Positions 12,876 through 34,144 of a stretch of 64,000 nucleotides of DNA are shown here, one piece after another. Under the pieces are notes generated by a model that saw nothing but the letters and a program-made list of their open reading frames with translations, did no database searches and was not told the origin of the DNA. Made by a program: the position numbers and the translations under genes. Source of the stretch: an uncultured Bdellovibrionales bacterium (GTDB taxonomy: Bacteria > Patescibacteriota > Minisyncoccia > Moranbacterales > DUUL01); assembly GCA_964346295.1 (NCBI GenBank), contig CAYFUG010000001.1:20325-84324 (forward strand). The letters run 5' to 3'. Numbering within the stretch: the stretch's first letter is position 1; every line of letters starts with the position of its first letter.

Positions 12876-12895
12876 TTATTTATTCAATTCACAGA

Positions 12896-15975: not shown

Positions 15976-17094
15976 TTACTTAATTTTAATATCTCGTAAA
16001 ATTTCTTCCCCCTCTTTGCCAAGCCGAATTCCCTGAACTCGAATACTCTCTTCCTCCACTTGAAAAACAGTATAAATATTACCCTTAAGAGCTCGATCAT
16101 ACTTACGAGAGTTGCCTACATTGCCACTTAAGACAAAATCCACTCCTGAGACAATTTTGTGGTCAAAAGCGTTTTCATGTCCAGAGATCACCAAATCGAC
16201 CTGATTCACCTGAAATATCTCCACTAATTGAGAAGAAAGATTACCCAAGCAACTCAAATCATGGCACTCTTTAGCTGATTTCTTGAAAAAAGTCACTGGA
16301 GGAATATGACTAACAACAATTTTGTTAGCCTTACGAGTATCAGACAAATCCTTCTCTAGCCATTCCAGTTGTTCTTTGTCAACAGCTTCCTTGGCAGGAC
16401 CCCCGGTAAACAAAACAGTAAAGTGCGTATTGCCATAGTCAAAGGAGTAATAAAGAGGACTTTCCTTGCTTAAAAAAACCTCTCCCCAGCTTTCAAGACA
16501 ATCCTCCCCGCACTCAATATCGTGGTTGCCAACCGCTATGTAATAATCCTGGTAGTATTTTTCAATTATCTCCTTCGCCCCTTCGATTCTAGCTTGATTC
16601 TCTTCTAAAGTAGCGGCTCCCGTGGTAATAACATCTCCTGTAAATAAGGCAAACTCCGGCTTACGGTGACTAGTCGCTTGCAAGACAACTTCTAGCTCTT
16701 CATTGTAGCCGGGCGGATCATAGGCCTCAGAATCTCCGATTCCCACGAAAGTGAACCTGGATATTTTTTCTTCTGGGCGCTTGGTTTCTAGTAAGGATTT
16801 TATCGGCAAACTTCTTTCGGAGGCCAGAATCTTAACATCTTCCGCTTCTAAAAAACGATTACCTTCCTTAATATTAGCGCTCTTTTTATCAGAACTGCCC
16901 TTCTTAGAGTTAGAGTCTGCTATAACTGGACGGTTAAATTGACCGGCTAGGTCACTCCAGAGATTGCTTAAGCCCAGCGCTCGAGGAGAATTTTTCTTTT
17001 CTAGCCAAGCATAAGAAACTAGCAAGCCAAAGATTGCTAGCAAAAAAATCACAAAAAAAATCAGATTTACTTTTTTTATTATTTTTAAAGACAT
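15976..17094 (-). CDS. Calcineurin-like metallophosphoesterase, membrane-anchored
   Basis: GDSEAY / FTGDVI, VGNHDIE, VISGHEN motifs; N-terminal TM. Confidence 0.75.
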   Translation of the reverse strand: MSLKIIKKVNLIFFVIFLLAIFGLLVSYAWLEKKNSPRALGLSNLWSDLAGQFNRPVIADSNSKKGSSDKKSANIKEGNRFLEAEDVKILASERSLPIKSLLETKRPEEKISRFTFVGIGDSEAYDPPGYNEELEVVLQATSHRKPEFALFTGDVITTGAATLEENQARIEGAKEIIEKYYQDYYIAVGNHDIECGEDCLESWGEVFLSKESPLYYSFDYGNTHFTVLFTGGPAKEAVDKEQLEWLEKDLSDTRKANKIVVSHIPPVTFFKKSAKECHDLSCLGNLSSQLVEIFQVNQVDLVISGHENAFDHKIVSGVDFVLSGNVGNSRKYDRALKGNIYTVFQVEEESIRVQGIRLGKEGEEILRDIKIK

Positions 17095-17250
17095 TTTTTC
17101 CCTATCCCCTCAAAAAATGGTCGTTACTTTACTAATAAGTTCATAAAATTATTCACAAAAACCACGAATCAATTAAGTAGTCGTTTAATTACTAAAATAA
17201 CTCCGCTAAACTCCTGACTTTAATCTCCTTTTGGCATCCCCTTGGCATCC

Positions 17251-17586
17251 TTATTTAAAACCGTTTCTTCCTAATCGATCACCTAAAAATAATCCCACTA
17301 AAAAAACTACTACTATCTCTAAATTATTCAAAATAGCTTCTACAAACTTATCCTGAGCAGTTCCATCTTTAGAAATTACAACCACCAAAACCACGCAAAT
17401 AGCCGCTAATACGACCAGAGAAAAAATTAGCAGTGCATACTTAAAAACCAATTTGATTATTAGGTTATGACGGTTTTCGTTTTGCTCCAAATCGGCCTCG
17501 GAAAAAATTCTTTCTAATTGGTCTTCGGGATTGGCCAGGGGCCGAAACTGCTTACGCTTTTTTTTGTTATCAGGCGAATTCGACAT
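17251..17586 (-). CDS. Small membrane protein (111 aa, 2 TM) translationally coupled to the ImmA/IrrE peptidase gene
   Basis: 17-nt overlap with upstream gene; two hydrophobic helices. Confidence 0.5.
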   Translation of the reverse strand: MSNSPDNKKKRKQFRPLANPEDQLERIFSEADLEQNENRHNLIIKLVFKYALLIFSLVVLAAICVVLVVVISKDGTAQDKFVEAILNNLEIVVVFLVGLFLGDRLGRNGFK

Positions 17587-18118
17587 AAGGAACAGTGTAA
17601 TTGAGATTTCTTAAACGCAAAACCACCATTAAAAGAGAAACCCGAAACTCCGCGGCAATCTCTCTGAGGACCTCCTCTTCTAATACAACATCCTTTCGAT
17701 GTCCTTCTTTTCCCAAAAAATCCTCCACCACCTCTCCTGGCATCAATAACTCCGCCGCCAATTCATCTGCCTCTTTTTCTAACTTTCCCGGATTCTCTCG
17801 TTTACTTTTTCTAGCAATTCCATCTTTATTAGCCTCAATTAAATCTCGATGCAATATATAATGAGCTAATTCGTGAGCAACAGAAAAGCGCTGCCGAGTG
17901 ACAGGATGAAAGGGGTTAACATAAATTTCGTATCGCTCTTTTTCTTTGTTAAATAGTATTTTGGCGTTGAAGTCACTAGAAAAGCTTTTCAAAAGAGATA
18001 CAATACTCTTCTTGTAGTAAACATCAATCCCTAAATTTTGAGCAAATTTAATAATGTCCAGGCCTCCCCGTTCTTTAAATTCTCGCAGCACCTTTTGGAT
18101 AATCTTTTTTTTATTCAT
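17570..18118 (-). CDS. ImmA/IrrE-family (DUF955) zinc metallopeptidase
   Basis: FSVAHELAHYILH HExxH motif in ImmA-like context. Confidence 0.7.
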   Translation of the reverse strand: MNKKKIIQKVLREFKERGGLDIIKFAQNLGIDVYYKKSIVSLLKSFSSDFNAKILFNKEKERYEIYVNPFHPVTRQRFSVAHELAHYILHRDLIEANKDGIARKSKRENPGKLEKEADELAAELLMPGEVVEDFLGKEGHRKDVVLEEEVLREIAAEFRVSLLMVVLRLRNLNYTVPYVEFA

Positions 18119-18125
18119 TTCATTG

Positions 18126-18166
18126 CCTTATATTTTAGCCTTATATTTTGCCTTATATTTTGCCTT
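18126..18166. repeat. Tandem repeat of 3.3 copies of ccttatatttt(a/g) directly 5' of the ImmA-like gene start
   Basis: ccttatattttag ccttatattttg ccttatattttg cctt. Confidence 0.8.
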
Positions 18167-18445
18167 CTGCTTTTAGAAATTAGCTTTCCTTACGGTTCTA
18201 TTTTATTACACTTTCTACTTAAAATCAAATCGGTTCCGAGTATCCTTAATGACTAATCTCCACGAAAAATACCAATAAAACAAACAAGGCAAGTCAAATG
18301 AAGTGATGAAAGCTTAATGTAAGACAACCTAACTCTTGCTGTTGACCTTATTCTTAATTTTAAATCAAAAGACCCTTGAAGCTGAAGCGGTTTCCCTAAA
18401 GATAATTTTCTTTCTACTATTTCTTTTTTAAAGATACTAACAAGG

Positions 18446-18904
18446 CTACTTTTCCTTAATAATCACTTGAATTTCACTAGAGGCAATCTTGCCGAAATTA
18501 ACCTTGACTACCCACTCTCCGGTTTCCTTAAAGGGCCTCTCTATTGCCACTCCTATCTCTCCTTTCAATTCCTCTCCAAATTGATCTTTAAGTTGTTGCC
18601 TAATTTTCTGAGAAATTTGCCCTTTATCCACTGACCCGAACAATTTTCCATCCTTGGCTTTTTCTTCAAAGATAATTTTTTGATCTTTAATTTTATCAAC
18701 TAATTTTTGAACTTTCTCTTTCTGCTGCTTTTTAGCTTGCTCTTCTTCTTTCTGAGAAATTTTGGCCATTTGAATATTCTTTCTGGTAGCTGGCGCCACT
18801 AAATTCCTAGGAATTAAAAAGTTTCGAGCATGGCCATTCGCTACCCTTTTTACCTCCCCCTTCTTCCCAATTCCTTTAACATCTTGATTGAGTACTACTT
18901 GCAT
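18446..18904 (-). CDS. rplI: 50S ribosomal protein L9
   Basis: MQVVLNQDVKGIGKKGEVKRVANGHARNFLIPRNLV. Confidence 0.9.
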   Translation of the reverse strand: MQVVLNQDVKGIGKKGEVKRVANGHARNFLIPRNLVAPATRKNIQMAKISQKEEEQAKKQQKEKVQKLVDKIKDQKIIFEEKAKDGKLFGSVDKGQISQKIRQQLKDQFGEELKGEIGVAIERPFKETGEWVVKVNFGKIASSEIQVIIKEK

Positions 18905-18983
18905 AAATTTAAATTAATAATTATTAAATTCAACCATTTGCCTCCTAGCATACAAAATTTCACCTAAAACCGCAAGATAAAGA

Positions 18984-19019
18984 AATAAAAAAGCAGCTCT
19001 CTCGAAAGAAAGCTGCTTT
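18984..19019 (-). terminator. Intrinsic terminator downstream of pilin gene
   Basis: aagcagctctctcgaaagaaagctgctt hairpin followed by U-run on minus strand. Confidence 0.6.
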
Positions 19020-19054
19020 AAGTGATTGATCGATTTTCTAAGGACTTTACTGAT

Positions 19055-19519
19055 TTACTGCAAGCACGCCGCGGGATTGCTAGCTCCATTGCAAATTGCA
19101 CAAGAGCCCGCTTTATTACCGTGGTATTGGCAAGCAACTCGGGTTTGATAACCATTTAACTCTCCTCCATACAACCAAACATGTCCTTTGTAAGCGGCGC
19201 CGGAGTGATTAACGCTATAGATCCTTAGATTAGTATACCCATCTGGTATGCTAATGGTAGCTGGTAGAGTCGGGCAAATTCTTTGGCCGTTGGTAATATC
19301 CCTATAACTACTTCCAGCATAGGCATTCTCACTAAGATGACAATCCATAATAGGACCCATAGCACTTTTTACAGTTTGTAGGGCACTAGTTACTCGAGCT
19401 CTTTCTCTTTGGTTACCAATTCCTACAATTACAGCTGCGGCTAGGATTCCAATGATAGCCATTACTAAGAGTAGTTCGATCAGGGTAAAACCTTTTTGGT
19501 TTTTTTTGAGATGTTTCAT
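19055..19519 (-). CDS. Type IV pilin (prepilin with class III signal peptide)
   Basis: KGFTLIELLLVMAIIGILAA N-terminal motif. Confidence 0.85.
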   Translation of the reverse strand: MKHLKKNQKGFTLIELLLVMAIIGILAAAVIVGIGNQRERARVTSALQTVKSAMGPIMDCHLSENAYAGSSYRDITNGQRICPTLPATISIPDGYTNLRIYSVNHSGAAYKGHVWLYGGELNGYQTRVACQYHGNKAGSCAICNGASNPAACLQ

Positions 19520-19743
19520 TTTTTACTTTTTTATCTTCTTGCGCTTTGGTCTGGGTGGTTATTATTTAAGACCACTCCGGAAGAAGAGTTGTTTAGTTTT
19601 AGTTGGATAAATTAAATGGTAGGTTAATTTTAGCAAAAATTTTACTAGCAGGCAAGAGCTAAGAAAAAATCGGCCTTAAAAACAAAAACTATCCGCATAG
19701 ATTTTAAGCCCTGGACCTCCAATTTAACTAAAATAACCCTATT

Positions 19744-20366
19744 TTATCGCCTCCAAAACTTCATTAGTAACGAGTTAGTTACCACGCTCACCGAAGAAAA
19801 GGCCACTGCTAGAGCCGCTAAAGCTGGCTTGAGTAAAAATCCAAAAAAGGATACAGGAGACCGGCTGCCACCGGAATACCGATAGTATTATAAAAGAAAG
19901 CCTAAAACAGATTCTGCTTGATCTTCTTTAGAGTATACTGAGAAATTTCAATCGCCTCCCGAACATCTTCCAGGTTACTCTTCACTAAAACAATTTCTCC
20001 GGTTTCCAAAGCCACATCGGTACCGCTTCCTAAGGCAATTCCCGGGTCTGCTTGGGCTAAAGCCGGAGTATCGTTCACTCCGTCACCTACCATCGCCACC
20101 ACATAGCCCTGTTTTTGCAATTCTTTAATTTTCTCTGATTTATCCCGAGACAGTACCTCCGCTAAAACTTCTGCTACTCCCAGCTTTTCACCCAGTGCCT
20201 CCCCTACTCCTTTTTTGTCACCCGTAATTAAGAAAACTTTTTTGTTTTGCGCTTGCAATTTTTTAACCACTGCCTCCGCATTGGATTTAAGTTGGTCCAT
20301 AATTGCCAATACTCCCACTGCCTTACCTCGAGCCACCAACAAAGGCGCCTGCCCTTGCTGGGTCAT
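19744..20366 (-). pseudogene. copA: Remnant of a heavy-metal P1B-type ATPase (copA-like): C-terminal HAD/ATP-binding part and TM7-8 only, with an in-frame TAG at the conserved Trp and a frameshift
   Basis: VAMVGDGVNDTPALAQADPGIALGSGTDVALETGEIVLV...QNLF-TAG-AFFYNTIGIPVAAGLLYPF, then after a -1/+1 shift in a T5 run LLKPALAALAVAFSSVSVVTNSLLMKFWRR; about 450 N-terminal residues are absent (only about 230 bp to the next gene). Confidence 0.8.
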
Positions 20367-20596
20367 TTTTTCAATTTCTTTTTTTATTTCCGAAGGAATT
20401 TCTACCTGCTCTTTTTTAAAAAACGCTCGTTACCTAGTAGTAATTTTTAGCTTAATGGAAAAAATGTAATGCTATTTTCTTGAATTTTCTATTATTAAAA
20501 ACGGCCTTTCTCTGGCTGCTTTTAATAATAAACTCACTACATCACCAAATAGATACCCAACTAGATCGTCCGGTAGTCCTAATCTAAAACAGCTCT

Positions 20597-21967
20597 TTAC
20601 TCCTCCTTCTTTACAGCATCAAACCTGAGAATCAAATCTTTCTTAAGAATATCCTCATGAGTAAACTCACCTTCCTCTGTTTTTACTACTACTTTAATCG
20701 GCACATCTCCCACTCCCGACTGTTTCTGAATCTTGAGGCGATAATTCTCCTCCTTAAAGCGCTCCGGCAATTCGTAAGTGATTTCCGCCTCAGTTTGATC
20801 ATTAATCAAAACATGTGCGATAAAGCCAAAGTAATCCTTATTGTAATCCTCCTGAAGATTAGGATAGCTTACCATTTTGCGATCCAAAAGATTAGACCCC
20901 CGGGGAACGTACATCCGCAAATAAGTATGATAATCACTAGTGCGCCAATCCCCGTGAGTGGCCGTATGAGTGTAAGTATAATCTAATTTAGCGAGAGGTT
21001 TTTCGGCCGTTAAATCTACGGTGTAAAGAATTTCACGCTCCATATAATGGTCCGACTTCAAGGCTCCCATATTAGCATCTATCAGCATCAAATAATCACC
21101 CTCCCACTGCTCATCTACTTTGCCTCCCCAATTCACCTCCTCTACTAAGGCCTGGAGTTCGGGCTCTTTAAAGTGAATCATCACATCCTTGTTTCGCAAT
21201 TCTTCTAGGGTAAAATCGGCAATTTTTTTAATATTCCCTAACTTAAAAAGCTCCTCTACGATTATCGGGGCCAGTTTCTTGATTATCCACTTGCGGTTTT
21301 GAGTATCCAAATTTTCATTAAAAAGGTAGGGTTTTTCTACTTGCTCTTCTAACTTAGACACCGCATTTTCGCTGTTATACTCTCCTATTCCCGAGACAGT
21401 GATCGGACCGGTCAAACCCAGTACTCCATTCAGTACTTTGGCATTCACCGCGATCACCCCATCAAAATTGCTATTACCCCCCGAAAGACGATAAAAATAT
21501 TTAGCCTTCTCCACATTCCGAGGAAAATCCGCTGAGAAGTTAGAGTCTCGAAATTTCCATTTTTTGATCTGCATCATTCGCTCAAAGGGATAGGGCGGGG
21601 TTATTTTAGCCTCAATTCGTTGGTCCAATAGATTAGCATCTTCTACAAACAAGGAGGTCACTTCTCCGTTTTTTACCTTCACCACAGCGTATTGTCCTAA
21701 AAATCCTCCCCCCGGCCGCAATTCCATATTATTTTGCAACATCAATAAATAGCGCCGCTCCACATCATCTTTTTTCATAAAAACCTGGGCCAATTGATCA
21801 ATCACTTCCACTTCTTTTTTGGTATTTTCTTCCATCGGCAAAAATTTCACTACCTCGGTCATGGCAGAAAATACTTTTACTGCCACTACTTTCTTATCAA
21901 TCATCCCCTGCTTGTTCATCCAAAATAACACTCCTCCCCCCAAGATAGATAGCACTATCAACACCAA
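20597..21967 (-). CDS. Hypothetical membrane-anchored extracytoplasmic protein (456 aa); start uncertain (TTG in track, possible frameshifted N-terminal extension)
   Basis: N-terminal TM then large hydrophilic domain; overlapping 74-aa ORF 21958..22182 in another frame could be its N-terminus. Confidence 0.5.
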   Translation of the reverse strand: MVLIVLSILGGGVLFWMNKQGMIDKKVVAVKVFSAMTEVVKFLPMEENTKKEVEVIDQLAQVFMKKDDVERRYLLMLQNNMELRPGGGFLGQYAVVKVKNGEVTSLFVEDANLLDQRIEAKITPPYPFERMMQIKKWKFRDSNFSADFPRNVEKAKYFYRLSGGNSNFDGVIAVNAKVLNGVLGLTGPITVSGIGEYNSENAVSKLEEQVEKPYLFNENLDTQNRKWIIKKLAPIIVEELFKLGNIKKIADFTLEELRNKDVMIHFKEPELQALVEEVNWGGKVDEQWEGDYLMLIDANMGALKSDHYMEREILYTVDLTAEKPLAKLDYTYTHTATHGDWRTSDYHTYLRMYVPRGSNLLDRKMVSYPNLQEDYNKDYFGFIAHVLINDQTEAEITYELPERFKEENYRLKIQKQSGVGDVPIKVVVKTEEGEFTHEDILKKDLILRFDAVKKEE

Positions 21968-22452
21968 AAAGATTCGAAAGGATTTCCCTCGTCTTTTTTT
22001 TCTGTTAGCGGCAAAGCGGCCTTGGGGCTAGAAGATCTCAAATTAGAGCTAGAATTAGAAAAATTACTAGGATTACTTCGCAAGTTGCGATTGGTAAAAA
22101 TTCTTTGCTTATTCATGAAAATGAGCTTGGTTTTAGTTTTCCTCTGGGAGCACTGTTTAATAATCAATTTTGCACTCAACAATTACTAACAAACAGAAAA
22201 GAAAGGTTGCGGATAATTTTTTGGTGCGTAAAATTGGCTAATAAAAAATAATTTCCTCGTAATAAAAACCACGAGGGAAGATTGCTCCTAGAAAGATTCC
22301 GTCTATTTTTAAGCTTACTTAAGCAATATACCAAAAAATCAAACCTTTGTCCAAATAGCTATCCGAGTTATCCACATCTCTATAAAACTCTGCCTTCTAA
22401 TGAGCCTTGCCTGGCTTATACCGAACGAATTAATCCCAAATACTTAAATGCT

Positions 22453-23472
22453 TCAAAAGGTAGTTTCTCGTAGTTCTTTTTCAATTTCTTTTTCCCACTG
22501 TTTATATTGCTTCCGACTCATTAAGCCGTTAGTAGCACCCAACTGAGTAATCACCCTCCGACTAGCAAGCATGGCCCATAGCATGGCACGCCTCAAGTCT
22601 GCCTTTTCTGAAAAACTAGTCAAAAATCCACTCACAAAGGCATCTCCCGCTCCTACTGTATCCGCTACTTTATTTTTATCCTGAATACTCGGCAAGTAAA
22701 AAGTCCACTCTTCGTTACTAGCGTAAGCTCCGGACGCTCCATCGGTGATTACAATATTAGCCACCTCCCATTCGAGGAACTGCTTTAATAATTTAGGCAT
22801 CTCGTCTTCTACTTGCCCTTTGACTCTTTGAATAATTTCTAAAGCTTCATCTCGATTAACAAATAAAATATCCACTTCTGCCAAAAACTTAACCAGTGCC
22901 TCCGATCCCTTTTCGATTTGGAAGCTAGAAGGATTCCAAGCAATCCCGGCTTTTTTATCTTTAGAGAATTCAATCACCTTTTCCATGTCTTCCTCCCAGC
23001 CCTCCTTTTGAGAGCCAATGTAAATCCAATCCACCTTTTCTCGAAACTTTTCTATTGCCTTGGCAACGTCAAAGCCCTCCACCGAATCTCCGGTTCGCAA
23101 AATTACATGATCATTGTGAGCTAAATCAGCAATTACTACGGATATCTGACTGTTCTGAGATCCTCCTTGCTGCATATAATTCTTTTTAAGCTTCCTGGCT
23201 CCAATTTGCTTGAGAATCCACTTTCCGGTTCCTCTTCGACAAGTCCGGGCCCAGATAAAGGCCCGGGTTCCTCCCTTAGTTAAACCACTCGCCACATTTA
23301 CTGCGCTCCCTCCCACTTCTTCTCGATATCCCTCTGCGTAAACCTTAGCCCCGAATTCTAATCCCATCAATTTCTTAGCCGTTAAATCCTCCGAGTTATC
23401 GATAATGGTAGTACGCCCTAGAGATAAAAACACATCCTTAGTAGCCGAACCCAGACAAATAATTTTTTTCAT
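22453..23472 (-). CDS. PfkB-family carbohydrate/sugar kinase (ribokinase-like)
   Basis: DTVGAGDAF motif near C-terminus; N-terminal GSAT.D glycine-rich. Confidence 0.8.
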   Translation of the reverse strand: MKKIICLGSATKDVFLSLGRTTIIDNSEDLTAKKLMGLEFGAKVYAEGYREEVGGSAVNVASGLTKGGTRAFIWARTCRRGTGKWILKQIGARKLKKNYMQQGGSQNSQISVVIADLAHNDHVILRTGDSVEGFDVAKAIEKFREKVDWIYIGSQKEGWEEDMEKVIEFSKDKKAGIAWNPSSFQIEKGSEALVKFLAEVDILFVNRDEALEIIQRVKGQVEDEMPKLLKQFLEWEVANIVITDGASGAYASNEEWTFYLPSIQDKNKVADTVGAGDAFVSGFLTSFSEKADLRRAMLWAMLASRRVITQLGATNGLMSRKQYKQWEKEIEKELRETTF

Positions 23473-23498
23473 GATTGGTTATTTTAATTTTGTAACTA

Positions 23499-25625
23499 TC
23501 ACAACTTAAATTCTAACGAACCCAACATCTTCTCGAAGCTTTCCCAGTCAACCTTATCAGCCGGAGCCTTAGCGAAAAATGTTAGCTGGTAATTACCTAT
23601 AATTGTCCAGTACATAATGGTCTCCGGAGGATTTCTTTTAATAAACTCATTACTGCCCAAAACGATCTTTTCAAAGCCAGAATTCTCGCTCTGATTCTCA
23701 GTGAAAATCTCATAGAGCTTGTCAACCGATTTTTTTTCTTCTAATAATTTAACTCTAAACTCTACTATTTCAAAGCCATTAACAACAGAAAGATCGTCAG
23801 AAAGATCGTCGATTAAATAACGAGCGAAAGTTTTGCCTGGCTCCTGGGGGTAATTATTGATCCTTTTTATCAAATATCTTTTTTGCCCATCCATAAAGAC
23901 AAACTCATCATCCACTCCAAATTCTAGATCTCTTCTCCTTGAGTTGTAAGAGATGTCACCTCCCTGATTAACACTCTCATTAACCTCAGATAGCCCGATA
24001 CTCTCATCTTCGCCGCACTGTTCAATACTCATTTCCCTGGAATCAGGAGAGTCTTCTAAATAAACCTTTGGTATTTTTTTAGAATCTACTTCGGTAGGAT
24101 ATCTCTCAAGTATAAGCTCCTCATCAACAGACAATTTTTCCATGGTTTCTCCTCCTCCCATATTCCGAGATAAGCCTGTCTCGAGCTCTAAGAGCTTAGA
24201 AGGTCCACTACTGTAAGTCATAAATAGATACTTTTCGTCAATATTAAAAAGCGAATCCACTTCTGAAATGGGTCCCTTACTAGCCAATTGATAACTTTCC
24301 TTGGTTACCTGATCTAAGCTCTGCTTGATAATAAAATGATCTTTTCCTCTCATTACCAAATCATCTTCATTATCAATTTCAATTCCGTACTCCTCGGCCT
24401 TTACCGGACAATAAATCTCTTTTCCTATTAAAGCAAAACTCTTGCAAGGCGCCAAATTATCCAACTTAACTATCCTAGGACTACAAGAGTGAATATTTTC
24501 AGCCTTAAAAAATTTACTCCCTTTTTCTAGAATCGTAAAAATCAAAGTATCCTCATCTAGCAAGGCAAAGTTTTGATCTACTAGAATTGTATACTCACTA
24601 TTTTCCACTCCATCTATTTTATCCACAACCACTCTGCGACCTCCATTTTTAGGATCAAAAACCACTAAAACATCATGCTTAGAAGCCTCTGCCTCTTTTT
24701 GTTTATCAATAAAGCCATTAAACCTATAGCCACAAACGAAACTCGTCCCAGAAATATCCCATTTGCATAAGTCCGGACAAACCTTAATTCCGTCGAAAGT
24801 CTCCATAAAACAAAGCTCTGTCTTCTGAGATGGATTATCCACTGACAATAATTCTTCGCAATCACCATATCGACCATAATCCTCACAACTTACAAAGTAT
24901 TTTCCATTGGGAGAAATGTAACCAATGTTTTCTTTTCCAGAAGAAAACAATTTCTGCTTCTTGTTTCCATAAAGCCCACTTATCAAAATTTCCCCGCTCT
25001 CTTCATCCTCGCCCGGGTAAATAAAGCGGGCAACTGACTCCAAGGGCTTTTTAGTCTCATAAGCTTGCTGGAATTGAAGTCCTTGTTTAACTGCCGTTGT
25101 TCCAAGAAAAACAATCGCGATTATTATCAAAGCGACTAACGAAGCGGCAACCACAGAAGAAGACACTAGTACTCTTTTAAATTTTTTCTTATTCCTAGTA
25201 ATTAAGCCCCGCTTCTCCAAGATACTAACAACAACAAAAATAACCATGAGAGAACTCAAAAGAGGGAAAAAAGGAAAAAATAAAAATTCACCAGCAAAAG
25301 AAAACTTTAATCCGGTAACCAACATTACAAAGACAATCAGAGAATAAGGAATGCTTAAAACAAGAGCTTCCCACGGATCTTGGCCAAACATCAAAAAGTC
25401 AATAAATTTATAAATTAAAAAAACAGAAAAAGAGAGTGTCAGCAGCAAAACATAAATCAAAACAGTAAGCAAAATTCGCCCCTTTAAAGAGCTCTTCTCT
25501 GGGCTTTGTTGGGAACCTTCAGTTCTTGAACTGCTTTGACTAAGATTTTCTTTTTCTTCTTGCTCACTAAAATTTACTTGGTTTTCCATTTTTTTATTTT
25601 TTCCTGAATTTATAATAGCATTCAC
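23499..25625 (-). CDS. Membrane protein with large Cys-containing extracytoplasmic domain; paralog 1 of a tandem pair
   Basis: About 45% identity to neighbour across whole length; shared blocks FIYPG.EESG.IL.SG, ENIGYISPNGKYFVSC, VDWESFEKMLGSLE. Confidence 0.6.
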   Translation of the reverse strand: MNAIINSGKNKKMENQVNFSEQEEKENLSQSSSRTEGSQQSPEKSSLKGRILLTVLIYVLLLTLSFSVFLIYKFIDFLMFGQDPWEALVLSIPYSLIVFVMLVTGLKFSFAGEFLFFPFFPLLSSLMVIFVVVSILEKRGLITRNKKKFKRVLVSSSVVAASLVALIIIAIVFLGTTAVKQGLQFQQAYETKKPLESVARFIYPGEDEESGEILISGLYGNKKQKLFSSGKENIGYISPNGKYFVSCEDYGRYGDCEELLSVDNPSQKTELCFMETFDGIKVCPDLCKWDISGTSFVCGYRFNGFIDKQKEAEASKHDVLVVFDPKNGGRRVVVDKIDGVENSEYTILVDQNFALLDEDTLIFTILEKGSKFFKAENIHSCSPRIVKLDNLAPCKSFALIGKEIYCPVKAEEYGIEIDNEDDLVMRGKDHFIIKQSLDQVTKESYQLASKGPISEVDSLFNIDEKYLFMTYSSGPSKLLELETGLSRNMGGGETMEKLSVDEELILERYPTEVDSKKIPKVYLEDSPDSREMSIEQCGEDESIGLSEVNESVNQGGDISYNSRRRDLEFGVDDEFVFMDGQKRYLIKRINNYPQEPGKTFARYLIDDLSDDLSVVNGFEIVEFRVKLLEEKKSVDKLYEIFTENQSENSGFEKIVLGSNEFIKRNPPETIMYWTIIGNYQLTFFAKAPADKVDWESFEKMLGSLEFKL

Positions 25626-25627
25626 AA

Positions 25628-27658
25628 TTAACGCTTTATCTCCAGCGAACCCAGCATTTTCTCGAAACTCTCCCAGTCCACCTTGTTGGATGGGTGCTTA
25701 ATCAAAAAACTAACTTGATATTTACCTGTTCTAATCAAATAAAAGGAAGTGTCTCTCTTAACATACTCATTGCCACCCAAAGTCAACTTACTATAATCAA
25801 AGTCAGTCCCATCTTCTTGTTGCTTGTTCAGCAAGTATCGGTAAAACTCCTCCGTGGAAGATTCCTCTTCTAAAAGATTAACTCTAACCTCTGCCATCTC
25901 AAAACCATTCACCACTGCCAGATCTTCAATTTGATAGAAGGCCAAAAACTCTTGATTCGCTCCTTGTTTTTTAAAAAGCCTTTTTATCGAATACCTCTCT
26001 TGACCATCCAAAAAAATCAACCCGTCATCCACTCCAAACTTCAGATCTTCCGGGCCAGAAGCCTGGGGATCGCTCGCCTCTCTTTCCGAGTTATAAGGGA
26101 TGTTCTCTCCTTGGTTAATGCCCTCATCAAGTTCGGACGAACCGGCATTCCTACCTTCCCTGCACTGTTCAATTTTTAGCCCCCTGGAATCAGAAGAGCT
26201 CTTTAAATAAGGTCGAGGAGTTTTCTTTTTATCCTCACTATTCTTAAATATAATCCCCTCATCCTCTTCCATGTAATCCTCCTCCCATTCAAATCCTCCT
26301 CCCAGATCCCTTACTAAACCACTCTCCGTTTCTATTATCTTGTAAGATCCTCCGTAGCGAGAAAGAGCGAAAATATACTTACCATCAACGCCAACAAGAA
26401 CCTCTGTCTCTGGGATTGGTGCCTTATTGATAACTTCAAAATCTTCTCTAGAGGCCTGATTCAAGCTTTGCCTAATAATAAAATGCTCGTAGCCCTTCAC
26501 TTCAAAATTATCCTCGTCGTTAATCTCAATTCCCTGCTCTTCGGCTCTCACAACACAATAAATGCCCTCTCTTTCCAACACAAAACTCTCGCAGTCAGCC
26601 AAATTTTCCAATTCCGTTACCTTGGGCCTACAAGAGTAAATGTCATCTAATTTCAAAAAACCTCCCATTGCCTTATTAATAATCAGAGAATCTTCGTCCA
26701 AAAAATCAAACCCCTTCACCTCGCCTGCAATACCAGCTCTCCCAAGGATTTCTATTTGCCTTCCCGTTTTAGGGTTGAATAAAAGTAACCCGTTTTTAAT
26801 ACTGCAAACTAAACTATTACTACCAGAGTCCCAGTCACAAAACTGGGGACATTTTTCAGTTTCACCGGAAGCTCCTTTTTGGCATAAATCAATTTTCTTA
26901 GAAGGATCCTCAGCTACATGCAATCCTTGACAATCCCCATACCTTCCATGGCCCTCATCACAACTTACAAAATATTTTCCGTTAGGAGAAATATAGCCGA
27001 TATTTTCTTCTCCGGAAGAAAATAACTTCTCTTTACTCTCTTCATAGATTCCACTTACCAAAATATCCCCACTCTCCTCGTTTACTCCAGGATAGATAAA
27101 GCGACTTTCAGATTCCACCGGCTCTCTGGTTTCGTAAGTTTCCTGGTAATAATCCTTCTCTTGCGATATGCCGAAAGACTGATTAAACTGAATAATCTTA
27201 TCAAAAATAAACACTACCGCACATAAAAAAAGCGGCACTGCCAAAATCCTATTAAATCTTTCCCGATTTTTAGTTATAATATGCGACTGCTCTAAAACGC
27301 TAACAATAAAAAAGATCATTGCCAGAGCTCCCAGTAGAAAAGCAAAAGGAAACAAATCAAAAATCGCCGCCCCTCCCCCAAATATCGGAACCACTCCTAG
27401 AACACCAATTAAAAAGACAGTTTGGACTATCTCACCAAAATCAGTCCGGAGCAAACCCCTATCCGGATCAAAATTAGCGAAAGCAAAAAGATATAAAACA
27501 ACTACAGCCAAGCAAAACAACGATACATATATTGCTATCGTCATCAATAACTTCCCTACAAAATCAAACTTCTTCTCTCTTGGTTGATTCCCCAATTGAA
27601 AAGAAGCAGGTTCTTTTTGCCCTTCTTCTTGATCACTAAAATTTACTTGGTTTTTCAT
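25628..27658 (-). CDS. Membrane protein with large Cys-containing extracytoplasmic domain; paralog 2 of the tandem pair
   Basis: See paralog 1; identical N-terminal MxNQVNFS(E/D)QEE. Confidence 0.6.
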   Translation of the reverse strand: MKNQVNFSDQEEGQKEPASFQLGNQPREKKFDFVGKLLMTIAIYVSLFCLAVVVLYLFAFANFDPDRGLLRTDFGEIVQTVFLIGVLGVVPIFGGGAAIFDLFPFAFLLGALAMIFFIVSVLEQSHIITKNRERFNRILAVPLFLCAVVFIFDKIIQFNQSFGISQEKDYYQETYETREPVESESRFIYPGVNEESGDILVSGIYEESKEKLFSSGEENIGYISPNGKYFVSCDEGHGRYGDCQGLHVAEDPSKKIDLCQKGASGETEKCPQFCDWDSGSNSLVCSIKNGLLLFNPKTGRQIEILGRAGIAGEVKGFDFLDEDSLIINKAMGGFLKLDDIYSCRPKVTELENLADCESFVLEREGIYCVVRAEEQGIEINDEDNFEVKGYEHFIIRQSLNQASREDFEVINKAPIPETEVLVGVDGKYIFALSRYGGSYKIIETESGLVRDLGGGFEWEEDYMEEDEGIIFKNSEDKKKTPRPYLKSSSDSRGLKIEQCREGRNAGSSELDEGINQGENIPYNSEREASDPQASGPEDLKFGVDDGLIFLDGQERYSIKRLFKKQGANQEFLAFYQIEDLAVVNGFEMAEVRVNLLEEESSTEEFYRYLLNKQQEDGTDFDYSKLTLGGNEYVKRDTSFYLIRTGKYQVSFLIKHPSNKVDWESFEKMLGSLEIKR

Positions 27659-27738
27659 TTTTTTCTACTTTTTATTTTCTAATCACAATCTTAAAGGCTT
27701 CTTCATTCCACTCAAAAAGCCTTGCTTTGTTATTGAAT

Positions 27739-27782
27739 TGTTTAAATTTGACACCAAAATTTTCAAAATTTGAAAGCCTCAC
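27739..27782 (+). repeat. Partial copy (3' module) of the dispersed intergenic repeat, just downstream of the hydA stop
   Basis: gacaccaaaattttcaaaatttgaaagcctc versus copy F taacaccaaaattttcaaaataggaaagtcc. Confidence 0.5.
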
Positions 27783-27787
27783 CCAAA

Positions 27788-29572
27788 CTAGCTTCGGTCA
27801 GTATAACTCGTATGCAAAAACTCCTCGGAAAGTTCCCCACCCGGCTCGCCCAGAAAATCCTTGTACAATTTTTTGATGGCCGGATTATCATGAGATTTAC
27901 GAAGCGGCATGTTTTTGTCCTTTTTGTAAATCGCCTCTAAGCGCTTCTGCCTCACCGCTGAAGTAGTGGGAATCGGCTGGCCGCCACCACCTAAACATCC
28001 ACCCGGGCAAGCCATTACCTCTACAAAGTGATAGTCGCACTCCCCTTTTTTAATCAACTCCAAAATCTTCTTGGCATTATGAATCTGATGGGCCACCGCC
28101 ACTTTAATCTCCAACGGCTCAGGTCGTCCCTTTCCTTTAGGAATAGTTACGGTGGCCTCCTTGATACCTTCTAAGCCACGCACCTTGTCAAAATCTAACT
28201 TCGGCAAATCTTGAGAGGTGATCTTTTCGTAAGCCGTTCTTAAGGCCGCTTCCATCACTCCTCCGGTGGCTCCAAAGATAATCCCCGCTCCTGAATACAA
28301 CCCCAGGGATTGATCAAATTCACTCTTTTTGAGTTTGGGTAGCTTGATGAAGCGCTTCTTGAGAGCTCGAGCTAATTCTCGAGTAGTCACTACCAAATCC
28401 ACATCCTGCAAACCATCTCGGCTCATCTCTTCTCGCTGGGCCTCAAATTTTTTACTAGTGCAAGGCATTACCGAAATACTGGCCAAATTTTCTCGATTAA
28501 CCTTTTTTTGATCAGCAAAAAAAGTTTTCAACAGTGCTCCCAACATTTGCTGGGGCGACTTAGCGCTCGAAAGATGCGGAATCATTTCCGGCCAGTATTT
28601 CTCCAGATATAAAACCCAAGAAGGGCAACAACTGGTAAACATTGGCAATTTCGTATCTTTACCCGCCAATAAATCCTCCACCCGGTGAATAAGCTCCGCT
28701 GATTCCTCTAGAATGGTCAAATCGGCCGAAAAAGTGGTGTCGAAAACATAATCCGCCCCCAGTTTTCTCAAGGCAGTCGGAAGCTGATCCTGGGCAAAAT
28801 GCCCCGGCTCTAAACCAAATTCCTCTCCAATCGTAAATCGCACCGAAGGCGCTACTTGAAAAATTTTAAGCCTGGATTCATCCTCTAAAATTTCGTCTAG
28901 GCGAGATAGATCATCCTTTTCAGTAATGGCTGCCGTCGGACATTGAATACTACACTGACCACAAAAAATACAATCCAGGGGCTCTTGATCCGGAGTGCCC
29001 ACCCGAGTTTGAATGGCCCGATGATGCATTCCGTAAGCTCCGACTGCTTGCACTTCTCGACAAACTTTGATGCAACGCCGACACTCAATGCAATATTGAC
29101 TATCGCGAGCAATGGAAGGATTAGCTTCATCCACTACTCGATTTTTTAAGCTTTCTTTGAGGGTTCTTAACTGATCCTCTTTCTCAAATACGCCGTAATT
29201 CGGGACCAACTCTTTAGTGTCTAGTTTCATCTCCTTAGCCATTTTCTGCAGCTCACAATTTCCGCTTCTCCTACACTGAGAGCACTTCCCCGCATGATCC
29301 GCCCACAAGAGCTCTAAGTTAATCTCCCGGGCTTTTTTGATCTCCTCATCTTCCGTGACTACTTCCATTAAATGTTCAGCGGGAGTATTACAAGAAGTCA
29401 CCAAGCCTCCCGTTTTATCGGTTTTCACTAAGCACATCCGACAAGCTCCCTCTGGCGCTAAATCGCCATGGTAACATAAAGTAGGGATAAAAACACCTTC
29501 CTTTTGGCAAACCTCTAGCACTGTTTGCCCTTGTTCGAAATCGTAGATTTTTTTGTTGATTTTTATTTGCAT
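27788..29572 (-). CDS. hydA: [FeFe]-hydrogenase catalytic subunit, monomeric CpI-like (M3 architecture)
   Basis: H-cluster motifs FTSCCPSW (L1), MPCTSKKFE (L2), EVMACPGGCLGGGGQP (L3); N-terminal 2Fe-2S (CYHGD...CRMC), His-ligated 4Fe-4S (HAGKCSQCRRSGNC), two 4Fe-4S ferredoxin motifs. Confidence 0.95.
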   Translation of the reverse strand: MQIKINKKIYDFEQGQTVLEVCQKEGVFIPTLCYHGDLAPEGACRMCLVKTDKTGGLVTSCNTPAEHLMEVVTEDEEIKKAREINLELLWADHAGKCSQCRRSGNCELQKMAKEMKLDTKELVPNYGVFEKEDQLRTLKESLKNRVVDEANPSIARDSQYCIECRRCIKVCREVQAVGAYGMHHRAIQTRVGTPDQEPLDCIFCGQCSIQCPTAAITEKDDLSRLDEILEDESRLKIFQVAPSVRFTIGEEFGLEPGHFAQDQLPTALRKLGADYVFDTTFSADLTILEESAELIHRVEDLLAGKDTKLPMFTSCCPSWVLYLEKYWPEMIPHLSSAKSPQQMLGALLKTFFADQKKVNRENLASISVMPCTSKKFEAQREEMSRDGLQDVDLVVTTRELARALKKRFIKLPKLKKSEFDQSLGLYSGAGIIFGATGGVMEAALRTAYEKITSQDLPKLDFDKVRGLEGIKEATVTIPKGKGRPEPLEIKVAVAHQIHNAKKILELIKKGECDYHFVEVMACPGGCLGGGGQPIPTTSAVRQKRLEAIYKKDKNMPLRKSHDNPAIKKLYKDFLGEPGGELSEEFLHTSYTDRS

Positions 29573-29616
29573 ATTTGAAAGTTACTTTTGAAAAATCTAA
29601 AAATAAGCAGACTCCT

Positions 29617-31164
29617 TCACAATTCCCTTTCAACTTCTTCACCCTTCTCTCTATCCCAATAAATCACCTTGGAAACTTTCCTCCTCAAATTCACCTTCAA
29701 GCGGCAATAATATTCTCCCTTGCTCCAAAACAAGCGCAACTTCTTCTCGCTACTTTTTTCTAGCTTGAATTTACCATCAAAGGCCGGATAGCTATTTCTA
29801 AATCTTGCCAACCAAAATAGGCGCTTCACCACTCTCCTTTGAGACTCTCTTTTAACATCTTGCTTGCTATAAAAATGCCGATTGATATCCCGCCCAATGC
29901 CAGTTTCTTCCAAAAGCTCTGTATCGTTTTCTCCTGCTAACAATCCCACATAATATACCTGAGGGATCCCTGGGACAAAAAATTGAATTGCTCGAGCCGC
30001 AATATAAGCATTATCATTCTCTCCCAAAGCCGAGTAATAAGTGCAATTAAGCTGATAAATGTCCACATTACTAGAATTGTAACCCGAAGCCCGCAAGGCC
30101 TCATTACCTCCAAAGGACTTAATCAAATTAACCAAATAATCTCGCTCCTTCTCGTTAATCAGGTCTTCTACATCCGGCACCGGCAGCCCGTCATGAGTGT
30201 CCAAAGTAGTGATCTGATTTTCCGGCCGAATTTTAATCCAGCGCTTCAGTGACTGGGTATTCTTAGAGTGGATAGCATCCAACACCAACATCGGCAAGGC
30301 AAAATCATAAATATAATCCACCCCTTTAATTTTGGCCAACTTAAACTGATCAGTATAATGAGAATGGACCTCCGGCAAACTTTTCATTCCAGCCTGATGA
30401 GACACCGCCGAAATCCAGCGAATAAAACTCAGAGTCTGAGGGATCATAAAACTTCGAGTGTCCCGTTCTTTAGCCACATAACCTACTGCATCTAAGCGCA
30501 AAAGGTTCGCTCCTTGCTCCGCCAAAAATTTAATTATTTCTCGAAAATATTTGATTACTTCTTTATTTTTAATATCCAAGTCAACTTGATCAGAAGAAAA
30601 AGTGCACCACAAACTCTTACCTCTTCCGTCTTTCAGTTCAAATTTAATAAACGGAGAACCGGGCCGTGGTCGATAAATCTTGCCCAAAGTAAGACGATTC
30701 ACCCCGCCTTTATGAAAAACAATATCCCAAGCCCGCAAATTATCAGCTGCCCTTTCTAAAAGCCGCACTAAACGAGGATACAGCTTCTTATTAAGCTTAA
30801 TGCGCCGAGAAAACTTTTCCGCACTGATAAACCAGTTCTTATATTTAGAATCCCGGCCTTTTTTAAGGTAATCCTGAAAAATATCCGACTGCGAAGAAAT
30901 ATGATTAACCATAAAATCAACCATTAAATCAAATTCCTGGCCAATTTTTTTGACATCCTCCCAGTCACCAAACTTGGGATCCACCTCAAAATGAGTCAGG
31001 GGTGAAAACCCTCGATCGGAAGAAGAAGGATAAAAAGGTAAAATATGAACTCCTCCTATTACTCCCGAAAAGTCATCCTTTAAAATTTCATAGAGACTTT
31101 TGAGGTCTCCTCCTAAGCTATCCGGATAAGTAATCAGTTGAATTTTATTTTGCAACTGTTTCAT
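29617..31164 (-). CDS. GH13_18 sucrose-phosphorylase-like glucoside phosphorylase
   Basis: N-terminal IQLITYPDSLGG, LRLDAVGYV (nucleophile region), TLDTHDG; about 500 aa without starch-binding extensions. Confidence 0.8.
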   Translation of the reverse strand: MKQLQNKIQLITYPDSLGGDLKSLYEILKDDFSGVIGGVHILPFYPSSSDRGFSPLTHFEVDPKFGDWEDVKKIGQEFDLMVDFMVNHISSQSDIFQDYLKKGRDSKYKNWFISAEKFSRRIKLNKKLYPRLVRLLERAADNLRAWDIVFHKGGVNRLTLGKIYRPRPGSPFIKFELKDGRGKSLWCTFSSDQVDLDIKNKEVIKYFREIIKFLAEQGANLLRLDAVGYVAKERDTRSFMIPQTLSFIRWISAVSHQAGMKSLPEVHSHYTDQFKLAKIKGVDYIYDFALPMLVLDAIHSKNTQSLKRWIKIRPENQITTLDTHDGLPVPDVEDLINEKERDYLVNLIKSFGGNEALRASGYNSSNVDIYQLNCTYYSALGENDNAYIAARAIQFFVPGIPQVYYVGLLAGENDTELLEETGIGRDINRHFYSKQDVKRESQRRVVKRLFWLARFRNSYPAFDGKFKLEKSSEKKLRLFWSKGEYYCRLKVNLRRKVSKVIYWDREKGEEVEREL

Positions 31165-31293
31165 CTTTCACTCTGATTATCAATTTTGATTTTGATTTGT
31201 TTTTTTTATAAGCATTTTATTATATCACAAATCTTTTGAAAATTTTTAGCTAAAATTACCCCAGAGCAACTATCTACTGCTGAGAGTAACTAT

Positions 31294-32049
31294 CTACTGC
31301 TGCAAGTAATCCTCCAAGTCTGGACCAATCTCCACTCCTCTTTGCTTAGCCTCTCGCAAGTAAAGTTGAGCATTCTCTTGATATCCCTGATTTAAATAAG
31401 CAAGTCCTAGCCAAAGAGCTGAAGAAGGATCATTGTCAAAATCTCGATCCTTAAGTAATTCAACTGATTGACCAAAATCGTCATTAAAGTAGTGCGCTAT
31501 GGCTAAATTCTTCCCCGCCGTGCTCTTCCTGTCCGGCTCACTTTCTTGATAAGCTTTTTGGGCGTGCTCCAAAGCCTTAGGATAATTAACTACCCCCGGA
31601 GACTCATCTTCTAAGTCTATATAAAAAAGAGCGAGGGTGTTATTGACCTGAAAATCATCCGAATTAAGTTGATGCGCCTTTCTAAAATGATCTCCCGCTT
31701 GCTGAAAATCATCATCCAAATAAGCAATCTCTCCCTTAATCAAGTGATAATCTAAAGAATCCTTCTTGGCTTCTTCCAGAGCCTTTTCAAAGGTTTCTCG
31801 GGCAAGACCCTCCTCCTCCCTGGAATCATATAAATAAGCCAGGTTTTTCAAGGTGGTAATTCTGGTCTCCTTAGTAGTCGCCTTATCTGCCGCCTCTTTT
31901 AATTGACTTACCACTTCGTCGGAAGTGTCTCCTGCATCAAAACTGGAAACCGCCTGATTGTTTTTATCAACCGACTCTTCGTCCGAAAAAGCATAAATAC
32001 CTCCTATTATTACTATCACTACCAGTACTAAGCGAATAATTTTACCCAT
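31294..32049 (-). CDS. TPR-repeat protein with N-terminal membrane anchor
   Basis: Anchor helix then repeated A..Y...G.Y..A TPR-like units. Confidence 0.6.
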   Translation of the reverse strand: MGKIIRLVLVVIVIIGGIYAFSDEESVDKNNQAVSSFDAGDTSDEVVSQLKEAADKATTKETRITTLKNLAYLYDSREEEGLARETFEKALEEAKKDSLDYHLIKGEIAYLDDDFQQAGDHFRKAHQLNSDDFQVNNTLALFYIDLEDESPGVVNYPKALEHAQKAYQESEPDRKSTAGKNLAIAHYFNDDFGQSVELLKDRDFDNDPSSALWLGLAYLNQGYQENAQLYLREAKQRGVEIGPDLEDYLQQ

Positions 32050-32264
32050 CTTCTTAAGTTACCTTTTTAAATTCCCTCCTTGTAAAAACATAAAATTAAA
32101 AGGCTTCGGCAGCCTTGCCCAAAAGCCTTCTTCTTTACTACTCCTCTTTCGTTATCTCCCGCGACATTAATTTTATTCTCGCTTTAAATTCCTCTTCAAG
32201 GCTCCCTTGCCAACTTAAAATAAAAAACAAAAAATCCGCCGCTTAAGAAGTAATAAAAATAACA

Positions 32265-33740
32265 TTACTCTCCTAGTTTTTTCCGAATGAAAGCTGGAAT
32301 ATCCAAATCCTCGTCACTGTAATCAGCTCCTCCTCTATCACTAGAAGGAGGCGTAGGACGCTTTCCGCCAGAAGCTCTTCGAGGACCAGGGCTAGAACTA
32401 AGTCCAGACCCTGAAGGATTATTATTATCTGATTCAGAATGATCTTCGACATCAATCTTAGTTTTCCGAAAAGAAAACCTCTCTCCTCCAAAAGAAATCG
32501 GCTCTTTGCGAGAAATTTTTTCTTTAATTACCTCGTCGTCCTGGCTTCGATGACTAAAACCGCCTGCCGAAACAATATTCGGACCATCAGAAGGAGCCTT
32601 TCTTGCTTGTTGGCTAGCCTTTCCAAAATTAAAAAAGCGCTGAGAAGGAGTGTCCTCCTCTCCCGCCTCTTTTTTCTCTTCCGGGTCCTCATAACCATAA
32701 TCCACTTCGGGGGTTAAACGAATTTTCTTTTGCTGACCAGAACCAGATCCAAAATAAGAGCGAGAAGGGGCGGAAGGATTAAATTCAAACCCAGTCGCTA
32801 CCACCGTTATTCGCAACTCTCCTTGCTTAATGCCTTCGTCCTTGGAGGCTCCAAAAATAATTCGAGCATTAGGATCCACACTATCAGCAATAATACCCGC
32901 CGCTTCATTTACTTCCATCATGGTAACATCGTCTCCTCCGGTAATATTGAATAATACTCCTTTGGCTCCGTCAATAGAGACATCCAAAAGCGGAGAATTA
33001 ATAGCTGATTTAGCCGCCTGGATAGCCCGCTTGTCCCCCGAGGAAACCCCAATTCCCATTAGAGCTGTTCCGCTCTCTTGCATAATGGCGTTAATATCAG
33101 CAAAGTCTACGTTAACGATTCCGGGCTTGGTAATTAAATCTGAAATACCTTGAACCCCCTGTCGCAAAACGTCATCTACAATCCGAAAAGAACTTACCAA
33201 AGAAGTATTTCTATCAATAATCTGGAGCAGCTTATCATTTTGGATAGTAATCAAAGCATCCACCCGATCTCGAAAATTATCCAAGGATTCCTCTGCGATT
33301 GCCATTCTTTGGCGACCCTCAAAGGTAAAAGGTTTTGTGGCTACTCCCACTGTCAAAGCCCCGGCCTCTTTAGCCGTTTCTGCTACCACCGGAGCCGCTC
33401 CTGAACCAGTGCCTCCACCTGCGCCATAAACCACAAACACCATGTCAGCTCCCTTCAAAATCTCTTGAATTTCATCTCGATTCTCCTCGGCCGCCTGCCT
33501 TCCCACATCAGGGTTCATCCCTGCTCCCAAGCCCCGAGTTAAATTTTTACCAATATGAATCTTCTCGCTAGCCTGGTTTTGATGAAGATCCTGAGCATCA
33601 GTGTTAATTGCCACAAAATCGATTCCTGCCAGCCCACACTCAATCATCCGCTCGATAGCGTTTCCTCCTGCGCCCCCTACCCCGATCACTTTAATCCTAG
33701 CGAAAGTTTCCACATCTGGTTTCACCTCGGCCATAAACAA
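32265..33740 (-). CDS. ftsZ: Cell division GTPase FtsZ with long disordered C-terminal extension
   Basis: GGGTGSGAAPVVAE tubulin signature; NTDAQ; C-terminal DIPAFIRK. Confidence 0.95.
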   Translation of the reverse strand: MFMAEVKPDVETFARIKVIGVGGAGGNAIERMIECGLAGIDFVAINTDAQDLHQNQASEKIHIGKNLTRGLGAGMNPDVGRQAAEENRDEIQEILKGADMVFVVYGAGGGTGSGAAPVVAETAKEAGALTVGVATKPFTFEGRQRMAIAEESLDNFRDRVDALITIQNDKLLQIIDRNTSLVSSFRIVDDVLRQGVQGISDLITKPGIVNVDFADINAIMQESGTALMGIGVSSGDKRAIQAAKSAINSPLLDVSIDGAKGVLFNITGGDDVTMMEVNEAAGIIADSVDPNARIIFGASKDEGIKQGELRITVVATGFEFNPSAPSRSYFGSGSGQQKKIRLTPEVDYGYEDPEEKKEAGEEDTPSQRFFNFGKASQQARKAPSDGPNIVSAGGFSHRSQDDEVIKEKISRKEPISFGGERFSFRKTKIDVEDHSESDNNNPSGSGLSSSPGPRRASGGKRPTPPSSDRGGADYSDEDLDIPAFIRKKLGE

Positions 33741-34144
33741 TTTGCTAAAATAACTAGCTGGGAAACAAAACCCTACTGAACCACGATACCTGGTTTAAAG
33801 TTCTTTCTCCTTTCCCGGCTATTTTTATTTCAGTTTAATTTTTACTTAAAAAATTTTATACTCCCATCTTATTGAATCTCCTGTTCATCTTTATTTAACA
33901 TCAGCTATAATTGAGCCTACCAAAACTACCCACAAAATCAAGCTACCCCTCACCTCCTACTTCCGCCCTCCTTTTTATACTTTCCAAGAAGTAAGATGAA
34001 GTAAGGCTTTAGAAACAATTTCCCTCTCAATAAGAGACTTCCCACTCTCATCACTAGCTGAAAATTACCACGACAAATTCCCTCTCTCCGTAATTAAAAA
34101 AATACAAAACAAGAAAATGCCCATCACCTCCAGAATTAACTTAC

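Follow-up and report, generated by a model that had tools for sequence, protein, structure and literature searches.

Six-bladed beta-propellers occur in TolB, a soluble periplasmic protein of the Tol-Pal system, and in the extracellular YWTD/LDL-receptor-class domains (LRP4, LRP6 and LDLR; PDB 3v64, 7nam and 3soq) of eukaryotic receptors with epidermal growth factor (EGF) modules. For paralogues that keep each other alike, the tufA and tufB genes of Salmonella are one example: they are under concerted evolution by gene conversion, with identical nucleotides including the synonymous sites, and in such converting paralogues whole genes or long tracts are more than 98% identical. Here, we compare with these systems two adjacent genes, named A and B, on the 64,000-nucleotide (nt) stretch of contig CAYFUG010000001.1 (positions 20,325 to 84,324 of the forward strand, hereafter the window), which code for predicted membrane-anchored propeller proteins and exhibit nearly identical 5' ends over 42 nt, a patch called the island below. 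The reading that we favour, with a probability of about 0.6, is that the pair arose long ago by tandem duplication of the gene for a rare membrane protein and that a constraint on the start region accounts for the island.

The best structural match of the modelled propeller is TolB (PDB 1c5k, 2ivz and 7mx5), and the six-bladed fold is common to TolB and to A and B. However, A and B are only 10-13% identical to TolB in sequence, have no PD40 Pfam match and lack its N-terminal alpha/beta domain; they are cysteine-rich and anchored by a polytopic membrane module, whereas TolB is soluble, and tol or pal genes were not seen near them. The YWTD/LDL-receptor-class propellers gave the best target-normalised template-modelling scores (0.49-0.50) and the lowest root-mean-square deviation in Foldseek, but A and B are 8-10% identical to them, do not present the YWTD signature and are anchored to the membrane in another way. 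In contrast with tufA/tufB, the match between A and B covers 42 nt only, the rest of the genes is 60% identical, and the two copies are as distant from each other as from a homologue of another lineage.

Gene pair and age of the duplication

The two genes and the two protein blocks used as landmarks are the following.
Gene A: 25628..27658, minus strand, 676 amino acids (aa), ATG start, TAA stop.
Gene B: 23499..25589, minus strand, 696 aa from the ATG at 25589, TGA stop.
A-B spacer: 25590..25627, minus strand, 38 nt.
ISPNGKYFV motif of A: 26966..26992, minus strand, aa 223-231, in the second blade-like strand group of the propeller.
VDWESFEKMLGSLE block of A: 25640..25681, minus strand, aa 660-673, in the last helix of the C-terminal domain.

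The longest open reading frame (ORF) of gene B spans 23499..25625 and would yield 708 aa from a GTG located two bases past the stop of gene A. We took the ATG at 25589 as the start, because it aligns with the start of A, is preceded by an identical AAAAAA and gives the 696 aa of the NCBI-sourced protein P0030; the spacer between A and B is therefore 38 nt long. The two proteins are 40% identical in BLASTP (732 columns, E = 4e-165), while a MAFFT codon alignment with 639 aligned codons gives 47% amino-acid and 60% nucleotide identity, and the long high-scoring segment pairs (HSPs) found by blastn are 64-72% identical at the DNA level. The initial annotation, which had described tandem, diverged paralogues of one architecture, is borne out by the two confirmed ORFs and their 40-47% protein identity. 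An assembly artefact or a pseudogene was considered and ruled out, since both ORFs are intact and four further contigs, assembled from three sequencing datasets, carry the pair with 100% identical DNA.

The ISPNGKYFV motif and the C-terminal block had also been reported as common to both proteins, and both are indeed identical in A and B. Residues S224, P225 and Y229 of the motif are invariant among 18 family members, and all 14 residues of the VDWESFEKMLGSLE block are conserved between the copies with 7 synonymous differences. Synonymous divergence is ordinary in these conserved blocks, codons differing at 7/17 positions around ISPNGKYFV and at 7/14 in VDWESFEKMLGSLE. Ten cysteine residues are aligned between A and B; eight of these, every one in the propeller, remain invariant when the homologue P0003 is included.

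The propeller is 46% identical in each of the three comparisons A-B, A-P0003 and B-P0003, and the membrane module shows 33% identity for A-B, 37% for A-P0003 and 33% for B-P0003. In a neighbour-joining tree A and B are basal to (P0006,(P0003,P0004)), and their grouping has a bootstrap of 59% in a near-trichotomy with almost no internal branch. Considering that A, B and the nearest homologue are equally distant in the propeller and that the tree is close to a trichotomy, the duplication is about as old as the split from the P0003/P0004/P0006 lineage. Concerted change along the alignable gene was not seen, the A-B identity being equal to or below that of A-P0003 and B-P0003.

The divergence of the two copies is uneven, A keeping the membrane motif and B the propeller insertion. 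Over aa 77-125, A is 52-54% identical to P0003 and P0004, compared to 41-43% for B. Conversely, P0003, P0004 and P0006 have a Y.F.GF.DK.K insertion and an LLSVDNPSQKT.LC segment that B keeps and that are lost or changed in A.

The 42-nucleotide island at the gene starts

The island extends from -6 to +36 relative to each ATG.
5' island of gene A: 27623..27664, minus strand, -6 to +36, AAAAAAATGAAAAACCAAGTAAATTTTAGTGATCAAGAAGAA, encoding MKNQVNFSDQEE.
5' island of gene B: 25554..25595, minus strand, -6 to +36, AAAAAAATGGAAAACCAAGTAAATTTTAGTGAGCAAGAAGAA, encoding MENQVNFSEQEE.

Forty of the 42 bases are identical, and blastn reports the island as a separate 42-nt HSP at 95% with 2 mismatches. 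No exact match of the two genes is longer than the one found here, which starts at +5 and measures 22 nt (AAAACCAAGTAAATTTTAGTGA); the next longest is 16 nt. The best 12-codon window also falls in the island, with 34/36 bases identical, followed by ISPNGKYFVSCE with 33/36 and VDWESFEKMLGS with 31/36. The near-identity of the 5' ends noticed in the initial annotation therefore holds: in the pairwise DNA alignment this is the best-matching stretch of the gene, by a small margin (34/36 vs 33/36). Both differences, AAA/GAA (K2E) and GAT/GAG (D9E), are non-synonymous; 10/12 of the first residues are identical, and the nine shared residues other than Met all use the same codon (9/9). Immediately after, in codons 13-36, the identity drops to 21% for amino acids and 40% for nucleotides. 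Within the window the 32-nt pattern of the island is present at only these two sites, with 0 expected by chance, and the 22-mer is absent elsewhere in the window, in the other family loci and in a collection of viral contigs. The island was not present in homologues from other organisms. It is a real 42-nt patch of near-identity between the two gene starts.

The explanation that we favour is a lineage-local constraint on the first 12 codons and their initiation context, part of the synonymous identity of the island coming from chance and from an A-rich codon preference at the 5' end. At identical residues outside the island, A and B use the same codon in 55.6% of cases; with this background the probability of 9/9 same codons is 0.004, and it is 0.0018 when the background is the 5' codon usage of 39 other genes in the window. 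A permutation fixed on the first window gives P = 0.006 for an identity of at least 34/36.

Several points weigh against this constraint. When the protein alignment is kept, 25% of the permutations present a window of at least 34/36 somewhere in the gene, and 27% a stretch of 22 nt or more without mismatch. A second patch, located after the propeller, exhibits a longer identical run of 11 codons (Y L.. S. D S R... I E Q C. E).
Linker patch of gene A: 26170..26218, minus strand, aa 481-496.
Linker patch of gene B: 24040..24088, minus strand, aa 501-516.
In addition, the island, with zero synonymous and two non-synonymous differences, is not as selection on the peptide only would predict, and the pair is known from one population with zero sequence variation, in which conversion is inseparable from constraint. 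Because of the gene-wide permutations (25-27%) and of the 11-codon run in the linker, the nucleotide excess in the island is suggestive and not demonstrated. As for the linker patch itself, its same-codon fraction is 0.67, compared to about 0.52 elsewhere, and it lies in a predicted disordered stretch which the single-copy homologues P0003 and P0006 lack.

The same permutations lend support to the view that nothing special happened at the 5' ends, a conserved 12-residue N-terminal peptide having been written with the same codons by chance and by the A-rich codon bias of gene starts. The longer same-codon run in the linker (11), the A bias of the 5' codons of the window and the M-[EKN]-N with which many family members begin are all in line with it. 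Nevertheless, the site-specific probabilities are low (0.0018-0.006), and this account leaves unexplained why 10/12 identical residues are followed by 21% identity over the next 24. P0003 and P0004, which are 61% identical overall, share only 4/12 of their first 12 residues, and the N-terminal tails of the family are normally fast-evolving. This oddity at the protein level (10/12, then 21%) lies outside what the permutations cover. We consider the chance account somewhat unlikely, although it comes directly after constraint in our ranking.

At the level of the protein, the patch is either held in place by something or recently homogenised. The latter would be a recent short-tract gene conversion between the tandem copies, homogenising about 42 nt of the 5' ends, with the two differences arising later. 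The nine shared codons without any synonymous difference while both differences are non-synonymous, the abrupt fall of identity in codons 13-36 (nucleotides 40%, amino acids 21%), and the otherwise fast evolution of the N-terminal tails are what such an event would leave, and the tandem, direct orientation of the copies favours exchange. However, the flanks are 40-50% identical; flanks this diverged are too unlike for strand invasion, and about 42 nt is near the usual minimum for homologous recombination. Moreover, homogenisation is seen nowhere else in the genes, the gene-wide probability given the protein alignment is about 0.25, and no second genome with the pair was recovered in which concerted change could show. 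We place conversion third, after constraint and chance, with a likelihood that is nevertheless little below that of the constraint.

We then consider the RNA. Folding of the 54 nt common to the two gene starts gave 0 and -1.2 kcal/mol, with z-scores of +1.6 and 0, no better than shuffles, and Rfam gave no match above threshold for the region or for the whole window. The island is not a structured leader. Additionally, no complementary (antisense) stretch of more than 9 nt to the island was detected within the 64 kb. A nucleotide-level regulatory site, present in both mRNAs where the coding region begins and recognised by a protein or by a small RNA, for joint control or matched output, would fit the 22-nt exact core from +5, and synonymous identity with tolerated amino-acid changes is what RNA-level selection would give; the unstructured state of the region would keep it accessible. 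Set against it are the lack of an Rfam match, the complementary stretches that never exceed 9 nt in 64 kb, the restriction of the 22-mer to the two gene starts among the window, the other loci and the viral contigs, and its absence from the homologues of other organisms. We hold such a site to be improbable, and it is the last of the four in our ranking.

The initial annotation had proposed either a recent 5' conversion or a translation-initiation or leader element. For this proposal the results point both ways: the site-specific probabilities of 0.0018-0.006 speak for a special status of the 5' ends, while the 25% obtained gene-wide, the absence of a structured leader and the absence of concerted evolution elsewhere in the genes speak against it.

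Returning to the constraint, the initiation context in which it would act is shared by the window as a whole. The AAAAAA before the ATG of A and of B is the usual Shine-Dalgarno-less context: among about 40 genes of the window, most are without a Shine-Dalgarno sequence and are A-rich from -10 to -1, and their codons 2-15 are A-enriched (0.36 vs 0.30). As a separate observation, the gene starts across the window suggest Shine-Dalgarno-independent initiation in this organism. Two further strings shared upstream of A and B, 'attgtga' and 'aaaataaaaa', were taken as chance, being at unequal distances from the ATG and of low complexity.

No promoter-like or terminator-like site was found on the gene strand in the 38-nt spacer, and because of this A and B are probably co-transcribed. 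A candidate promoter was located upstream of A.
Weak sigma-70-like site: 27737..27766, minus strand, TTGAAA, 18 nt, AACAAT, a 9/12 consensus match.
This site lies about 80 nt upstream of A, and shuffled sequence would be expected to give as many such sites as the region has; by its consensus match, it is a possible operon promoter. A and B would then be made from one transcript, each being translated at its own A-rich, Shine-Dalgarno-less start.

Predicted architecture and topology

The architecture was read from an AlphaFold2 (AF2) model built on an alignment of 18 sequences, with a mean predicted local distance difference test (pLDDT) of 76; an earlier model from 3 sequences reached a pLDDT of 41 and was discarded. 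The layout of the product of gene A is given below, and that of gene B is the same.
Residues 1-32: N-terminal tail.
Residues ~33-160: membrane module.
Residues ~180-480: beta-propeller.
Residues ~490-553: linker.
Residues 556-676: C-terminal alpha/beta domain.

In the model of A, helices are present at 33-61, 74-86, 97-124 and 132-175, and are followed by a beta-rich domain (180-480, pLDDT about 90) whose strands form roughly six four-stranded sets. This is the beta-propeller that the initial annotation had suspected in the ectodomain, and for which TolB is the best structural match. The stretch of about 490-553 is disordered and leads to a beta/alpha domain at 556-676 with a pLDDT of about 85. 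The membrane module is marked by the motif GV.GV.P.FGG....F.FPFAP....L..IF..V..LEK.

The loop 123-137 contains 4-6 Lys/Arg residues in A and B, while the loop 62-76 is acidic in both; the stretch past the last transmembrane helix is acidic in A (2 K/R vs 7 D/E) and near neutral in B (3 vs 2). Because it is rich in Lys/Arg, the loop 123-137 is assigned to the inside, and the charge counts place the loop 62-76 and the post-helix stretch outside. With these loop charges, the N-terminus should be inside and the propeller outside the cell, which is consistent with the eight invariant cysteine residues; the propeller cysteines are probably disulfide-bonded. For this topology, the conserved GV.GV.P.FGG....F.FPFAP segment would also have to come back out of the membrane on the side from which it goes in.

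We picture the following arrangement only as a proposal: the short, low-complexity tail and the K/R-rich loop would be cytoplasmic, and everything after the last transmembrane helix would face outward, that is the cysteine-rich six-bladed TolB-like propeller, the disordered acidic linker and the small alpha/beta domain. With the membrane module as its tether, the propeller would serve for binding at the surface, in a receptor or an envelope-interaction protein. This part of the proposal also has to face four points that count on the other side. The topology is derived from charge counts and from the AF2 helices; the surface-binding function is in turn deduced from fold and topology, and from these only; the neighbourhoods of the family differ between loci and none is conserved; and the C-terminal domain alone, compared with PDB sequences and Pfam, returned noise only and no recognisable fold. 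That domain was found only in A, B, the homologue P0017 and, more weakly, the homologue P0005.

Family, host and meaning for surface proteins

The family had been called uncharacterised in the initial annotation, and the Pfam, NCBIfam and PDB sequence searches agree with this. Neither A nor B scored above a curated cut-off in Pfam or NCBIfam; at E up to 1, Pfam gave only scattered chance matches in the 18 family members, and a PDB profile search with the family returned only Aip1 (E = 0.017). A word-indexed search of 5.8 billion clusters recovered only A, B and one 510-aa relative, and the same search with the 18-sequence alignment led to the same 3 proteins and none further. When 1.84 billion representative proteins were scanned exhaustively with HMMER, 29 were recovered, of which 23 at E up to 1e-10. 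A peptide-pattern scan of metagenomes added at least one locus, with a homologue covering residues 3-505 at 40% and resembling the P0003 locus, and a scan of genomes added one, L006. Among the papers listed by a literature search, none mentions a beta-propeller or deals with this family. The family is rare, unnamed and undescribed, and belongs so far to uncultured, apparently reduced-genome bacteria similar to those in the candidate phyla radiation (CPR).

Regarding a copy number that would vary across related genomes, as the initial annotation had raised, the pair was recovered here and a single copy in every other family locus, of which only L006 and L009 have long flanks. Both paralogues together were found in no other genome recovered.

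The window itself looks like that of a reduced-genome, CPR-like bacterium, with few functions besides a DUF4012 protein, FtsA, FtsZ, an Fe-only hydrogenase and a type IV pilin-like gene. TGA is a stop in this window, whereas the relative in L006 requires code 25, as used in Gracilibacteria and Absconditabacteria; lineages with different genetic codes are therefore represented in the family. The family genes have an Fe-hydrogenase, a PfkB kinase and the DUF4012 protein as neighbours in this window; in L006 the neighbours are tgt and a predicted membrane protease, and in L009 they are defence genes. The loci of the family and one further ORF of the window that drew attention are these.
L006: 10013..11256 of CALNYL010000001.1 (metagenome-assembled genome HOU_bin.0025), a family member readable only in code 25, with TGA = Gly.
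L009: 6915..17956 (GCA_964500125.1), surroundings of the P0005 homologue.
L008: 72..2762, P0017, 896 aa, a distant member.
HAD ORF of the window: 19902..20366, minus strand, 154 aa.

The L006 member is frameshifted near 11068-11077 and is either a pseudogene or the product of an assembly error. The surroundings in L009 resemble a defence island, with Fic/RhuM, nSTAND3/AAA_14, DUF3800 and MazE-like genes, a type I restriction-modification system and an OLD-family TOPRIM nuclease. P0017 contains the membrane module twice, at aa 18-162 and from aa 228, by internal duplication, and has the C-terminal domain as well. Of a HAD/P-type-ATPase phosphorylation domain (GDGVNDTPAL; Pfam Hydrolase), the 154-aa ORF of the window includes just the C-terminal part; it has no membrane part close by and is probably a gene remnant. 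The GC skew is strongly and uniformly negative over 1..64000, nearly all genes from 12 kb on being on the minus strand, and no tRNA or Rfam family was detected within the 64 kb.

A more daring idea joins the two halves of the analysis. On the surface of an epibiotic, reduced-genome bacterium, A and B could be the partners of an obligate hetero-oligomeric complex, in which A would contribute the intact membrane motif and B the ancestral propeller, the nucleotides of the island being kept so that translation or regulation of both from a single transcript goes in step. We regard it as a long shot. If it were true, the island would be a cis-encoded stoichiometry device operating without initiation led by a Shine-Dalgarno sequence.

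On these results the island is a modest curiosity and not a new mechanism; the fold is known, and tandem paralogues are ordinary. It provides a small, defined case on the persistence of short patches of identity between old paralogues. The result further defines a small family whose members combine a membrane module with a TolB-like propeller, the C-terminal domain being optional, and gives an alignment and a usable model for it. Where uncultured, reduced-genome bacteria depend on a host, their surface proteins are prime candidates for attachment to it; most of these proteins are uncharacterised, and it is among them that the products of A and B, by their predicted fold and topology, may belong.

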